Assembly: GCF_003334335.1 (NCBI RefSeq)
Contig: NZ_QOWQ01000001.1
DNA length: 64,000 nucleotides
Reading direction: 5' to 3' (one strand)
Source: Escherichia coli
Lineage (GTDB): Bacteria; Pseudomonadota; Gammaproteobacteria; Enterobacterales; Enterobacteriaceae
The position numbers are program-made. Shown in pieces: positions 37,701 through 43,700 of this stretch; position 1 is the first letter of the stretch, and each line of letters begins with the position of its first letter.

Positions 37701-40700
37701 TTTTCGGCGCGTAATACATGATGACGTTCATCCCGGTGAATTGCTGCATTACCTGCAACAGTACGCCAAGGAACACCGCGCGGCGGAAGTTGCTGTTCTC
37801 TTTAAACAGCGCCCAGCCACTCTGTTTAACCTGCAAACTTTCACGGATTTCATCCAGTTCGCGTTTCGCTTCCGCGCTGGTGTCACGCAGGCGTAGCAGC
37901 ACGCGTTCGGCATCAACAAAACGGCGTTTGGCGGCAAACCAACGTGGGCTGTCTGGCAGGAAGAAGACACCAATCAGCAGCAAAATTGCCGGGATGATAA
38001 TCACACCCAGCATCCAGCGCCATGCACCGGTGTAGCTGAAGGCGGTATCAGAAAGATAAGCACCGAGGATCCCGATAGTGATCATCAACTGATACATCGA
38101 GATCATACTGCCACGAATTTTTTCCGGCGCAATTTCAGAGAGGTACAGCGGTGCGGTATAAGAGGCCACACCCACCGCCAGCCCCAGTAGAACGCGGGAA
38201 AGAATCAGTACTTCAACGTTTGGCGCAGCCGCAGAGAACAGCGAACCGGCAACAAACAAAATTGCGCCGATCATCAGGCTCTTTTTGCGCCCGAGTTTAA
38301 AGGAGAGCCAGCCGCTGCCCACCGCACCGACTGCCGCACCGAACATCATGGAGCTTACGACCCATTCTTGCGTGTGCGAAGTAATCTGGAATTCATCTGC
38401 AATAAACGGCAGTGCGCCAGCAATTACACCGATATCCAGGCCAAAGAGTAATCCCGCCAGAGCGGCAAGGAAGCAGACGAAAAACGTCATTGCCTTGTTT
38501 GACCGCCCCTGTTTTTTAGCGTCAGGCATGATGCCCTCCAATATGGTTATTTTTTATTGTGAATTAAGATAGGTGAGTACGACGTAAAAAGATGTGAAGC
38601 AAATCACATCAGTGTAATCGCTTACACTAACATTTATCTTAGTTATGATTTAAGTGCATGAAAATAATTGAGTTATATCATCATAGATTAAACGCTGTTA
38701 TCTGCAATTAAGACTTTACTGAAAAGAAATGTAACAACTGTGAAAACCGAATAATAATATGAAAATATTACAAATCTTTGTCTGTTGTGGTTGGTGTAAT
38801 CGGTTTCAGTTGTGATGATAATCTGCGGTGAAACGTGATCAGGAAGAATGATGTTATTGTGCGGGCGGTTTTTTTGCCGGATGCGGCGTGAACGCCTATC
38901 CAAAAGAAAAAGGCCAGCGCGAGGCTGGCCTTTGAACGCAGGTGAAGAAAGATTACTTCAGACCGGCAGCATCGCGCAGCAGCTGCGCTTTGTCGGTTTT
39001 TTCCCACGGGAAATGTTCACGACCAAAGTGACCGTATGCTGCGGTTTCTTTGTAGATCGGGTGCAGCAGATCCAGCATCTGAATCAGACCGTATGGGCGC
39101 AGGTCGAAGAACTCACGTACCAGCAGGGTCAGTTGTTCAGAAGGCACTTTCTCAGTACCGAAAGTTTCTACCATGATGGAGGTCGGTTCAGCCACGCCGA
39201 TTGCGTAGGAAACCTGAATTTCACAACGATCGGCCAGGCCAGCAGCAACGATGTTTTTCGCGACATAACGTGCTGCGTAGGCTGCGGAACGGTCCACTTT
39301 TGATGGATCTTTACCAGAGAATGCACCGCCACCGTGACGCGCCATGCCGCCGTAGGTATCAACGATAATTTTACGACCAGTCAGACCGCAGTCACCCATT
39401 GGGCCACCGATAACGAAACGACCGGTCGGGTTGATGAAGAATTTGGTGGCAGAAGTCAGCCATTCAGCGGGCAGAATTGGCTTGATGATCTCTTCCATTA
39501 CCGCTTCTTGCAGCGATTTCTGGTCGATCTCTTCAGAGTGCTGAGTGGAAAGCACGACAGCATCGATACCAACGATTTTGCCGTCGTCATACTGAAAAGT
39601 CACCTGGCTTTTCGCGTCCGGGCGCAGCCACGGCAGAGTGCCGTTTTTACGCACTTCAGCCTGACGCTGTACCAGACGGTGTGCATAGGTGATAGGTGCT
39701 GGCATCAGCACGTCGGTTTCATTAGTTGCGTAGCCAAACATCAGACCCTGGTCACCCGCGCCCTGTTCCAGCGGATCGGCACGGTCAACGCCCTGGTTGA
39801 TGTCAGGAGACTGTTTGCCGATAGCGCTCAGAACCGCACAGGAGTTAGCGTCAAAGCCCATGTCGGAATGCACATAGCCAATTTCGCGAACGGTGTTACG
39901 GGTGATCTCTTCGATGTCTACCCAGGCGCTGGTGGTGATTTCGCCGCCAACTAAAACCATGCCGGTTTTTACGTAGGTTTCGCAAGCAACGCGTGCTTTC
40001 GGATCCTGTTCGAGGATCGCGTCTAAAACGGCATCAGAAATTTGGTCAGCAATTTTGTCAGGATGCCCTTCAGAGACGGACTCGGACGTAAAAAGGTGTT
40101 TTGCCATATTTAATATCACCTAAAGAGAATTTGGTTAGCTCAAACTGTTGTGTGGATTTTCTGTGGTAGCGGATCCTACCACGACTCTGCAGGTTAAAAA
40201 CACTGGCAGTCTGAGTGTTAATCGGTATGGATGGATTAACATCTGGATGGCTATTTTAGGTCAATTCTTCACCCTATTTCCACTTTTTTTTGAATCGTGT
40301 CTCATTCTGTTAAAAACGTGGCTGGAAATTTTTCCTGACAATGCCGGCATTCTGCGTATTTATCTTTTGCAATTTTCTGCCATTGTGGGGTATAAAACGC
40401 GGCGCGCGGCTTAAATAAAAAGCACACGACGTTTCTTTCGTGTTGCCACTTCCAGCCGGGTTGAAATCAGAGTTTTGGCTTGTGGGTTCGTCTTAACAGG
40501 CGGCCGTGGAGGTGATACGAAATAATGAACCGTTGTCTGCTGCTTAACCTGTCTCACCGTTCTGGTGAAGATTCGTTCCCCGCACTCTGCATCTCTGCTT
40601 TGCATACCTGCCGATGTTATACCCATCTCGGCGCTTCTCAGGATTCAAGAGCTGGTTACAGTTACTGAGGACTGAACAAGGGCGCTCTTGTAAAAACAAG

Positions 40701-43700
40701 AGTTTTCTCGTGGTTTCGCCGAACTTTCACACTTACGTTCGGTTATGTGCTTAATAATGTTATGAAAAAGAAACCGGTTGCGCAGTTGGAGCGTCAGCAT
40801 TCACTGCTGGAAAATCCATGTGCTTATGGGTTGTTATCGCAGTTCCAGGCTGCGATAGTCGTTAACTGTTTTACACTTAATAAAATAATTTGAGGTTCGC
40901 TATGTCTGACGACATGTCTATGGGTTTGCCTTCGTCAGCGGGCGAACACGGTGTACTACGCTCCATGCAGGAGGTTGCAATGAGCTCCCAGGAAGCCAGC
41001 AAGATGCTGCGTACTTACAATATTGCCTGGTGGGGCAATAACTACTATGACGTTAACGAGCTGGGCCACATTAGCGTGTGCCCGGACCCGGACGTCCCGG
41101 AAGCTCGCGTCGATCTCGCGCAGTTAGTGAAAACTCGTGAAGCACAGGGCCAGCGTCTGCCTGCACTGTTCTGTTTCCCACAGATCCTGCAGCACCGTTT
41201 GCGTTCCATTAACGCCGCGTTCAAACGTGCGAGGGAATCCTACGGCTATAACGGCGATTACTTCCTTGTTTATCCGATCAAAGTTAACCAGCACCGCCGC
41301 GTGATTGAGTCCCTGATTCATTCGGGCGAACCGCTGGGTCTGGAAGCCGGTTCCAAAGCCGAGTTGATGGCAGTACTGGCACATGCTGGCATGACCCGTA
41401 GCGTCATCGTCTGCAACGGTTATAAAGACCGCGAATATATCCGCCTGGCATTAATTGGCGAGAAGATGGGGCACAAGGTCTATCTGGTCATTGAGAAGAT
41501 GTCAGAAATCGCCATTGTGCTGGATGAAGCAGAACGTCTGAATGTCGTTCCTCGTCTGGGCGTGCGTGCACGTCTGGCTTCGCAGGGTTCGGGTAAATGG
41601 CAGTCCTCCGGCGGGGAAAAATCGAAGTTCGGCCTGGCTGCGACTCAGGTACTGCAACTGGTTGAAACCCTGCGTGAAGCCGGGCGTCTCGACAGCCTGC
41701 AACTACTGCACTTCCACCTCGGTTCGCAGATGGCGAATATTCGCGATATCGCGACAGGCGTTCGTGAATCCGCGCGTTTCTATGTGGAACTGCACAAGCT
41801 GGGCGTCAATATTCAGTGCTTCGACGTCGGCGGCGGTCTGGGCGTGGATTATGAAGGTACTCGTTCGCAGTCCGACTGTTCGGTGAACTACGGCCTCAAT
41901 GAATACGCCAACAACATTATCTGGGCGATTGGCGATGCGTGTGAAGAAAACGGTCTGCCGCATCCGACGGTAATCACCGAATCGGGTCGTGCGGTGACTG
42001 CGCATCACACCGTGCTGGTGTCTAATATCATCGGCGTGGAACGTAACGAATACACGGTGCCGACCGCGCCTGCAGAAGATGCGCCGCGCGCGCTGCAAAG
42101 CATGTGGGAAACCTGGCAGGAGATGCACGAACCGGGAACTCGCCGTTCTCTGCGTGAATGGTTACACGACAGTCAGATGGATCTGCACGACATTCATATC
42201 GGCTACTCTTCCGGCATCTTTAGCCTGCAAGAACGTGCATGGGCTGAGCAGCTTTATTTGAGCATGTGCCATGAAGTGCAAAAGCAGCTGGATCCGCAAA
42301 ACCGTGCTCATCGTCCGATTATCGACGAGCTGCAGGAACGTATGGCGGACAAAATGTACGTCAACTTCTCGCTGTTCCAGTCGATGCCGGACGCATGGGG
42401 GATCGACCAGTTGTTCCCGGTTCTGCCGCTGGAAGGGCTGGATCAAGTGCCGGAACGTCGCGCTGTGCTGCTGGATATTACCTGTGACTCTGACGGTGCT
42501 ATCGACCACTATATTGATGGTGACGGTATTGCCACGACAATGCCAATGCCGGAGTACGATCCAGAGAATCCGCCGATGCTCGGTTTCTTTATGGTCGGCG
42601 CATATCAGGAGATCCTCGGCAACATGCACAACCTGTTCGGTGATACCGAAGCGGTTGACGTGTTCGTCTTCCCTGACGGTAGCGTAGAAGTAGAACTGTC
42701 TGACGAAGGCGATACCGTGGCGGACATGCTGCAATATGTACAGCTCGATCCGAAAACGCTGTTAACCCAGTTCCGCGATCAAGTGAAGAAAACCGATCTT
42801 GATGCTGAACTGCAACAACAGTTCCTTGAAGAGTTCGAGGCAGGTTTGTACGGTTATACTTATCTTGAAGATGAGTAAGTCCTGTGTTACTTGAATCCGC
42901 TTAATTTAGCGGTGATAATCCGCCACAATTTATTGTGACAAATCCAACCCTTCCTCGTCGGGCCTAACGACGCGGAAGGGTTTTTTTATATCGACTTTGT
43001 AATAGGAGTCCATCCATGAGCACCTTAGGTCATCAATACGATAACTCACTGGTTTCCAATGCCTTTGGTTTTTTACGCCTGCCGATGAACTTCCAGCCGT
43101 ATGACAGCGATGCAGACTGGGTGATTACTGGCGTGCCGTTCGATATGGCCACTTCTGGTCGTGCGGGTGGTCGCCACGGTCCGGCAGCGATCCGTCAGGT
43201 TTCGACGAATCTGGCCTGGGAACACAACCGCTTCCCGTGGAATTTCGACATGCGTGAGCGTCTGAACGTCGTGGACTGCGGCGATCTGGTATATGCCTTT
43301 GGCGATGCCCGTGAGATGAGCGAAAAGCTGCAGGCGCACGCCGAGAAGCTGCTGGCTGCCGGTAAGCGTATGCTCTCTTTCGGTGGTGACCACTTTGTTA
43401 CGCTGCCGCTGCTGCGTGCTCATGCGAAGCATTTCGGCAAAATGGCGCTGGTACACTTTGACGCCCACACCGATACCTATGCGAACGGTTGTGAATTTGA
43501 CCACGGCACTATGTTCTATACCGCGCCGAAAGAAGGTCTGATCGACCCGAATCATTCCGTGCAGATTGGTATTCGTACCGAGTTTGATAAAGACAACGGC
43601 TTTACCGTGCTGGACGCCTGCCAGGTGAACGATCGCAGCGTGGATGACGTTATCGCCCAAGTGAAACAGATTGTGGGTGATATGCCGGTTTACCTGACTT

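Follow-up and report, generated by a model that had tools for sequence, protein, structure and literature searches.

The stretch of DNA considered in this study, 64,000 nucleotides from Escherichia coli (henceforth the window, to which all unqualified coordinates refer), contains a spacer of 794 bp between metK and speA (40108..40901), about 500 bases of which make up the 5' leader of speA, the gene encoding biosynthetic arginine decarboxylase. I conclude, as a moderately probable reading of the evidence, that this leader is a structured attenuator that depends on the termination factor Rho and is controlled by upstream open reading frames (uORFs). The second of these, yqgB, would be an ORF that acts in cis to couple translation to speA, and the first, yqgG, is the likely gatekeeper. 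The transcription start, the Rho dependence, the translation of YqgG and YqgB, and the loss of speA and speB expression upon deletion of yqgB are taken from the work of others, while the conserved frames, the position of the yqgB stop, the YqgG motif, the hairpins, and the base composition were observed in the comparison of genomes described here. The locus has been described before, as have its small ORFs and the Rho-dependent attenuation; neither Rfam nor the literature examined contains the fixed end point of yqgB, the motif of YqgG or the map of hairpins.

The features on which the argument turns, all on the plus strand, are as follows.

40367..40396, plus: speA promoter (-35 TTGCAA at 40367-72, an 18-nt spacer, -10 TATAAA at 40391-96, then a GC-rich discriminator)
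40404..40901, plus: speA 5' leader, 498 nt, covered by no Rfam family
40508..40516, plus: Shine-Dalgarno sequence of yqgG, GGAGGTGAT, 9 nt complementary to the 3' end of 16S rRNA
40525..40668, plus: yqgG, the first uORF, 47 aa, with a conserved C-terminal motif; antisense to yqgC
40539..40643, plus: C-rich, G-poor stretch inside yqgG, candidate Rho utilisation (rut) site
40762..40893, plus: yqgB, the second uORF, 43 aa, lacking a Shine-Dalgarno sequence, its TGA inside that of speA
40892..40909, plus: speA initiation region (Shine-Dalgarno GAGG at 40892-95, ATG at 40902, a second TGA at 40907-09)

Genomes compared

A scan of a genome collection provided the 80 closest speA loci of the Enterobacteriaceae, from which 76 distinct metK–speA spacers were aligned. 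Since the species are related to one another, species counts given below do not represent independent events, the closest proxy for which is the set of 11 classes of yqgB–speA spacing plus several types of insert. Spacers from outside Escherichia are 62-82% identical to that of the window, with near-invariant blocks alternating with blocks that vary freely. Within the species the spacer is found at 95-100% identity in 5426 of 5426 complete E. coli genomes. One E. coli genome carries two copies, and two copies in the genome collection are recorded on plasmids. One of the loci, from a contig labelled Chryseobacterium sp. 18061, has the metK–speA locus of Enterobacteriaceae and is probably mislabelled or contaminated.

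An ORF of 43 or 71 codons is by itself not beyond chance (dozens of ORFs are found in the stretch), and conservation must decide. The codon periodicity of variability is flat over the whole length of all four ORFs annotated in the spacer. For this reason the analysis was moved to the ratio of nonsynonymous to synonymous differences (pN/pS), calculated block by block.

The promoter and leader of speA

The primers used for the "speA 5' UTR" (untranslated region) by Adams et al. (2021, PMC7815308) begin with GCGCGGCTTAAAT, at 40404, and end at 40901, and the published mapping in the same work puts the start of speA transcription at 40404. With the leader beginning there, yqgG and yqgB are uORFs of the speA mRNA and not free-standing genes. 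The promoter, as read from the sequence, ends 7 nt 5' of the leader end used in the published construct, and the block 40388-40407 is 91-93% conserved over the 76 spacers. A simple promoter scan did not call this real promoter and gave three hits elsewhere, which were left unused except for a minus-strand site near metK. A scan of 38500-41500 against Rfam (E ≤ 1) found no relevant cis-regulatory family, the lone match being to a Brucella small RNA model, outside the region and at 19.8 bits against a gathering score of 229.

The dependence on Rho is documented by several results of Adams et al. (2021, PMC7815308). They report a Rho-dependent 3' end by Term-seq 57 nt into speA (K-12 position 3085854, or 40959 in the window), with a Rho score of 3.09 and tagged "uORF", and a peak of Rho termination at K-12 position 3086055, or 40758, which is 4 nt 5' of the yqgB ATG (score 3.69, p 9e-20). 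The rhoR66S allele alters both a speA 5' UTR-lacZ fusion and northern blots, and the authors include yqgB-speA in their list of candidates for uORF-dependent regulation (Adams et al. 2021, PMC7815308). Literature searches found no follow-up studies on the speA leader.

The 3' end at 40959 lies just 5' of an internal start of speA, Met27 (40980); in-frame alternative starts of speA have been published, among them one that yields a proteoform shorter by 26 residues. A second Term-seq 3' end (K-12 position 3086295, or 40518; Adams et al. 2021, PMC7815308) falls 2 nt past the yqgG Shine-Dalgarno sequence. It implies a fragment comprising the first 115 nt of the leader (40404-40518), ending just beyond the covarying hairpins described below, for which a decay product, a terminated RNA and a functional small RNA are all candidates. 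Finally, the sequence A(C/T)ACTTAA occurs twice at conserved positions, at 40731-40738 in the loop of hairpin 2 (see below) and at 40873-40880 just 5' of the speA Shine-Dalgarno sequence, and could be recognised by a protein or a small RNA.

yqgB ends on the start of speA

The frame of yqgB extends 43 codons from the ATG at 40762 to the TGA at 40891-40893, leaving 8 nt (40894-40901) before the ATG of speA at 40902, all exactly as given in the initial annotation, which suggested translational coupling or control by a leader peptide and proposed conservation of the frame across Enterobacteriaceae as a check. The frame passes that check, with the ATG present and the frame open in 76 of 76 spacers. 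In none of them is yqgB in frame with speA, and the other two frames contain 1-6 stops each. The stop itself is found only at two TGAs. In 55 species it is the one at 40891-93, which overlaps the Shine-Dalgarno sequence of speA 8 nt 5' of the ATG, and in 21 species it is the one at 40907-09, which overlaps codons 2-3 of speA and gives an 8-nt overlap of the ORFs. The proximity of stop and start expected of a translationally coupled gene pair is thus present in all 76 species, and the speA initiation block (40892..40909) is invariant in 54 sequences.

What lies between the start of yqgB and this end point is much less constant. The spacing between the ATGs of yqgB and speA falls into 11 values between 125 and 265 nt, and YqgB ranges from 38 to 90 aa in length, while the position of the stop relative to speA is fixed. 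Eleven of the loci carry palindromic inserts of 20-125 nt inside yqgB (at the equivalent of about 40872), with flanks TATACCC...GGGTATA and strong predicted hairpins. The frame is open through every one of these inserts, which account for some of the variation in spacing, and withstands insertions of five kinds. The pN/pS ratio is 0.31 over codons 1-8, 1.09 over codons 9-20 and 0.98 over codons 21-39, and the best conserved codons (23-26 and 31-32) show no variation at any of their three positions. With so many codons invariant in this way and a pN/pS close to 1, the constraint appears to act on the RNA, and most of the peptide, to judge from the alignment, is under weak constraint. Of the comparative results, the one that bears most directly on mechanism is that selection keeps the frame readable from 40762 to the ribosome-binding site of speA regardless of what intervenes, which suits a coupling uORF acting in cis more than it suits a protein gene.

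Coupling from yqgB to speA, as the initial annotation suggested, is supported by the stop lying in or just past the ribosome-binding site of speA in 76 species, and also by the place of yqgB inside the speA 5' UTR, by its listing in Adams et al. (2021) and by the effect of a deletion in Salmonella. In that case (a 2026 study), loss of yqgB decreased speA and speB mRNA, arginine decarboxylase and spermidine, and polyamines rescued the mutant. The deletion is indecisive for coupling, since it also removes leader RNA. Initiation at the yqgB start has been seen in a cell-free system by INRI-seq, and YqgB is counted among experimentally validated small proteins (Adams et al. 2021, PMC7815308).

YqgB goes by the name "acid stress response protein", and it might chiefly be a small protein that acts in trans, its place 5' of speA serving co-expression only. 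I judge this rather unlikely as the main role, and it is compatible with coupling in cis rather than exclusive of it. YqgB does match a family of proteins: NCBIfam equivalog NF033844 at 90.1 bits (cut-off 35; residues 1-40 of 40 profile positions) and, through its relatives in the database, Pfam PF11036, while a search with the single sequence gives matches within Escherichia. Conservation is seen in the blocks KKPVA, YGLLS and AIVVNCFTL, and the codons for Ala7, Val33 and Val34 vary synonymously. Overproduction of the protein perturbs cells, and deletion mutants are more sensitive to colistin and, in the account that a citing paper gives of Hobbs (2010), to acid. The best conserved codons, however, do not vary at third positions and belong to predicted helices, codons 9-39 show a pN/pS of about 1, and a protein that tolerates arbitrary inserts over a range of 38-90 aa has its stop fixed with respect to a neighboring gene. 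The Salmonella result is what an effect in cis predicts, since speA and speB expression is lost and putrescine or spermidine rescues. The text of that paper nowhere mentions complementation or polarity. If yqgB acts in cis, the deletion phenotype is explicable without a trans-acting acid stress protein.

yqgG encodes a peptide with a selected C-terminus

The first uORF was discovered by start-site profiling, and tagged YqgG was detected (Weaver et al. 2019). With the position computed here and translation taken from the literature, yqgG is a translated short ORF inside a mapped 5' UTR. Its Shine-Dalgarno sequence is invariant in an alignment of 48 sequences, within a block (40508-17) that is 98% conserved. 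The ATG is present in 75 of the 76 spacers and the frame is kept in the same number, with ORFs of 43-55 codons.

The two parts of yqgG have fared differently. Codons 1-27 drift (pN/pS 0.73), and codons 28-44 have a pN/pS of 0.30, as compared to 0.98 and 3.36 when the same segment is read in the other two frames. Position 42 is always Arg, encoded by AGG, AGA, CGG or CGA. By these measures the C-terminal motif (GASQDSRAG) is under selection at the level of amino acids, giving YqgG the conserved C-terminus of a regulatory uORF peptide; in YqgB such conservation is confined to codons 1-8. A profile search found the YqgG family in about 35 genera, all of them Enterobacteriaceae (a search with the single sequence reached a few other genera of that family), and in these the motif [CS]R[CS]..H.G[ATL]SQDSRAG is separated from the stop by 0-5 residues. 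Buttiauxella, Scandinavium, Dryocola and Cronobacter all retain it. The peptide of the window is 98% identical to the RefSeq "protein YqgG", and all its relatives carry Pfam PF23505; NCBIfam has no model for YqgG. Three database records, which attribute a YqgG to Vagococcus, a partial YqgG to Pseudomonas aeruginosa and a partial YqgB identical to that of E. coli to Klebsiella pneumoniae, are probable cases of mislabelling or contamination.

The body of yqgG is also unusual in composition. In E. coli the stretch 40539..40643 consists of 33-35% C and 15-20% G, and over the species compared the body of the ORF averages 33.5% C and 19.9% G. C exceeds G in 74 of 74 species, unlike every other segment of the leader. 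On this composition the body of yqgG is a candidate rut site.

In two loci, from Citrobacter portucalensis and Citrobacter sp. On2M, an insertion of about 127 nt resembling an enterobacterial repetitive intergenic consensus (ERIC) element splits yqgG after about codon 33 (near 40620 in the window; about 2600-2730 in the C. portucalensis locus). The C-terminal motif is thereby put out of frame, and the two strains are natural knock-outs of the YqgG C-terminus.

Structure of the leader RNA

The 5' part of the leader was folded by RNAalifold on 48 sequences. The structural elements found there and farther downstream, all on the plus strand, are the following.

40404..40461, plus: 5'-terminal helix, GCGCGGCU pairing with AGCCGGGU, enclosing hairpin H1 (about 40424-40443)
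40488..40503, plus: hairpin H3, just 5' of the yqgG Shine-Dalgarno sequence
40680..40709, plus: hairpin T (40684-40690 with 40697-40703), extended by GGG/CUC pairing, with UUUUCUC after it; also called as terminator-like
40712..40775, plus: GGUUUC:GAAACC helix (40712-17 with 40770-75, the latter in yqgB codons 3-5), enclosing hairpin 2 and the yqgB AUG
40829..40867, plus: hairpin internal to yqgB (40834-40 with 40852-58, 7 bp), its loop made of the variable codons 27-30

Several of these are attested by compensatory changes. In H1 a G-C pair is replaced by A-U in 10 sequences and an A-U by G-C in 8, within an invariant outer helix, and in H3 five of the six pairs have changed on both sides, each in 4-23 sequences. 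H3 is closely followed by the Term-seq 3' end at 40518. A terminator-like call on the minus strand at 40424-40443, inside yqgC, is the reverse complement of H1 and better explained by the plus-strand structure. Hairpin T begins 16 nt after the yqgG stop and shows a compensatory change from U-A to C-G in 21 sequences, and hairpin 2 (40718-24 with 40737-43) shows A-U to G-C in 12. For these two hairpins taken together, 96% of cells are paired, as against 32-58% when the partner is slid.

The GGUUUC:GAAACC helix appears in the minimum-energy fold of 71 of 76 species. Since yqgB has no Shine-Dalgarno sequence, this predicted helix could gate its initiation. An alternative, upstream partner for GGUUUC, the GCAAACC of yqgG codons 26-28, appeared in folds of a truncated fragment only, the full fragment giving the downstream partner (71 of 76), and a switch between the two partners is at this point speculation. 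The hairpin internal to yqgB keeps all 7 core pairs in 54 of 54 sequences, with no compensatory changes.

The succession of a leader peptide and a hairpin followed by U residues recalls attenuation of the trp type, in which hairpin T (40684-40703 and its U run) would be a terminator set by the position of the ribosome on yqgG. The geometry is suitable: a strong Shine-Dalgarno sequence, an ORF of 47 codons, a stop 16 nt before a covarying hairpin, and then UUUUCUC. In E. coli, moreover, the CAAGAGC of yqgG codons 41-43 (40647-53) is complementary to GCUCUUG, the 5' arm of the hairpin, and could form an antiterminator with it. But this pairing is not conserved: in other genera the codons read TCC AGG GCC, and in most predicted folds the segment forms a small hairpin of its own. 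The run of U residues is brief and discontinuous, Term-seq lists no 3' end at the site (K-12 30861xx), and termination in the speA leader is Rho-dependent. Hairpin T is real, and it has neither a U tract with an in-vivo 3' end nor a conserved antiterminator, the two marks of an intrinsic terminator in such a system. I have rejected intrinsic attenuation of this type as unlikely.

It is more improbable still that the reading frames are incidental, the region being conserved only as RNA structure and as binding sites for proteins or small RNAs and the translation of yqgG and yqgB having no role. Such a view would account for the lack of three-base periodicity over the whole of both ORFs, for the many blocks invariant at all codon positions in predicted helices, and for the absence of the yqgB start from in-vivo retapamulin profiling (Ribo-RET). 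It would not account for a yqgB frame free of stops in every spacer and through five kinds of insertion when the other frames are closed, nor for the amino-acid selection on the YqgG motif (with Arg42 specified by four codons), the invariance of the yqgG Shine-Dalgarno sequence, the detection of tagged YqgG, and the validation of YqgB as a small protein.

A model for the leader, and points against it

These features suggest how an attenuator controlled by the two uORFs might work. Rho would load on the C-rich region of yqgG unless ribosomes mask it, and would terminate transcription from about the yqgB start onward unless yqgB and speA are translated. The strong Shine-Dalgarno sequence, C-rich rut-like body and selected C-terminus of yqgG, together with the two conserved hairpins downstream of it, would make it the gatekeeper, in that Rho loading and the initiation of yqgB would both hinge on what ribosomes do on yqgG. 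Ribosomes that translate yqgB would then pass an invariant hairpin (and, in some genera, the inserted palindromes), shield the last 140 nt of the leader from Rho, and terminate atop the ribosome-binding site of speA, handing its start to ribosomes. What would matter is mainly that the yqgB frame be translated to its end, not most of the peptide sequence.

The selected C-terminus near the stop, and the hairpins that follow yqgG, point to yqgG as the site where a signal is read, by analogy with tnaC, speFL and mdtU. Polyamines, agmatine or arginine would be the obvious candidates for the ligand. A relay from yqgG to yqgB may be envisioned, in which the nascent SQDSRAG of YqgG senses a metabolite of the polyamine pathway and thereby sets Rho loading and frees or sequesters GGUUUC, with yqgB delivering the ribosomes. 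I offer this two-step scheme tentatively, as a possible but doubtful elaboration.

A number of points weigh against the attenuator as I have drawn it. The sample is confined to one bacterial family, the Enterobacteriaceae. Two of the structures invoked, the GGUUUC:GAAACC helix and the hairpin internal to yqgB, have no support from covariation, because both are invariant. The retention of Ala7, Val33 and Val34 through synonymous changes indicates that the YqgB peptide itself may matter as well. The yqgB start was missed by the in-vivo profiling already mentioned, and overproduction of YqgB elicits a response of the heat-shock, aggregation type and not the cold-shock signature of arrest peptides. 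As speA has a reasonable Shine-Dalgarno sequence of its own, coupling may not be obligatory, and since the ERIC-like insertion destroys the C-terminus of YqgG, yqgG is dispensable in two lineages of Citrobacter. The literature searched contained no experiment linking translation of yqgB or yqgG to the output of speA, and none in which termination or read-through in this leader depended on a uORF and a metabolite.

Other ORFs and neighboring genes

The remaining features of the region are listed here.

38953..40107, minus: metK, known as an ORF and from the K-12 annotation; left neighbor, divergent from speA
40163..40414, plus: yqgD, annotated ORF of 83 aa with a GTG start
40208..40260, minus: conserved block upstream of metK, 91-98% conserved across Enterobacteriaceae (conservation profile)
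40411..40626, minus: yqgC, annotated ORF of 71 aa, antisense to yqgG
40902..42878, plus: speA, biosynthetic arginine decarboxylase, known as an ORF and from annotation; right neighbor and the regulated gene

The window is oriented as the reverse complement of K-12, and the spacer is taken to start at 40108 because the ATG of metK, on the minus strand, is at 40107. The K-12 RefSeq record annotates four ORFs in it: yqgD, yqgC, yqgG and yqgB. The initial annotation described the region by yqgB and yqgC, both correctly, but it overlooked yqgG (40525..40668) and yqgD (40163..40414), as well as the speA promoter, the transcription start and the conserved RNA hairpins.

Its suggestion that yqgC is an easily overlooked small protein does not hold up. 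In most genera the yqgC frame stops after 8-27 codons, with a pN/pS of 0.91, so that the conservation across Enterobacteriaceae that served yqgB well fails here, and Weaver et al. (2019) found yqgC to be without ribosome density and without a tagged protein. The yqgD frame is likewise broken in most genera, with 19 different triplets at the position of its start and a pN/pS of 0.93, and its sole conserved part is the block at 40208-40260. That block is presumably the promoter/operator of metK, and the promoter scan called a minus-strand promoter-like site there (40282..40253).

That the two are nonetheless genuine genes for small proteins is highly improbable: they are annotated in the K-12 RefSeq record (yqgD as a DUF2684 protein) and their ORFs are intact within Escherichia, but outside that genus yqgC is cut short in most genera and the yqgD start is unconserved, both pN/pS ratios are near 1, neither ORF matches an NCBIfam model, and yqgC, with neither ribosome density nor tagged protein, is unlisted in most other E. 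coli RefSeq records examined, which were annotated by the Prokaryotic Genome Annotation Pipeline (PGAP) and list the other three. The comparative data argue against counting either as a gene. yqgC is probably not one, and both are probably chance ORFs over functional non-coding sequence.

Related systems and significance

The leader of tnaC-tnaAB offers a comparable layout for yqgG: the leader peptide is conserved at its C-terminus, close to the stop, and a rut site lies at or beside the leader ORF, so that a stalled ribosome blocks Rho. yqgG matches this arrangement in its C-rich body and in having its motif 0-5 residues before the stop, stalling and rut site being putative here. The speA leader differs in having a second uORF between the sensor and the structural gene. 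For that second uORF the precedent is the coupling of many operon genes by termination and reinitiation at overlapping or abutting stops and starts. As in those pairs, the stop of yqgB is within about 10 nt of the speA start (76 of 76 species), but yqgB is a frame of 38-90 codons with poorly constrained sequence and not a structural gene. The arrest motif of SecM, ...GIRAGP, shares R-A-G with the invariant S-R-A-G of YqgG, a three-residue match that carries no statistical weight, and the residue after RAG in YqgG is variable and rarely Pro.

Two further leaders serve polyamine metabolism. That of mdtU-mdtJI in E. coli (Adams et al. 2021, PMC7815308) belongs to an operon of the polyamine pathway and has a long 5' UTR, a translated uORF with a conserved C-terminus, and Rho-dependent premature termination. 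Dependence on spermidine and on translation of the uORF has been shown experimentally for mdtU, whereas for speA Rho dependence only has been shown (PMC7815308). The speA leader also differs in its two uORFs, the second ending on the start of speA.

The leader peptide speFL is reportedly (Herrero del Valle et al. 2020) an ornithine-sensing arrest peptide that acts through Rho-dependent attenuation. The system of speFL (orf34) and speF, which serves the parallel pathway to putrescine, resembles the speA leader in its short leader ORF, long 5' UTR, Rho-dependent termination relieved by the position of the ribosome, and a peptide conserved close to the stop codon (Ben-Zvi et al. 2019, PMC6386406). 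YqgG and YqgB have no sequence similarity to SpeFL, and for the speA leader both ligand and stalling are putative. The literature on speF that was examined does not treat the regulation of speA.

The product of speA opens the route from arginine to putrescine. That putrescine represses speA was recognised around 1990, and the older literature is not known to offer a molecular mechanism. The comparative results do not in themselves establish a new kind of system; they do make the mechanism testable, providing as experimental handles a coupling uORF with a fixed end, a second uORF with a selected motif, a rut-like stretch and a set of mapped hairpins. The two-step relay, if true, would be an undescribed system and the long-missing mechanism for the repression of speA by putrescine. 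Effects in cis on the expression of speAB may underlie the phenotypes ascribed to the "acid stress response protein YqgB", among them its recent use as a drug target.

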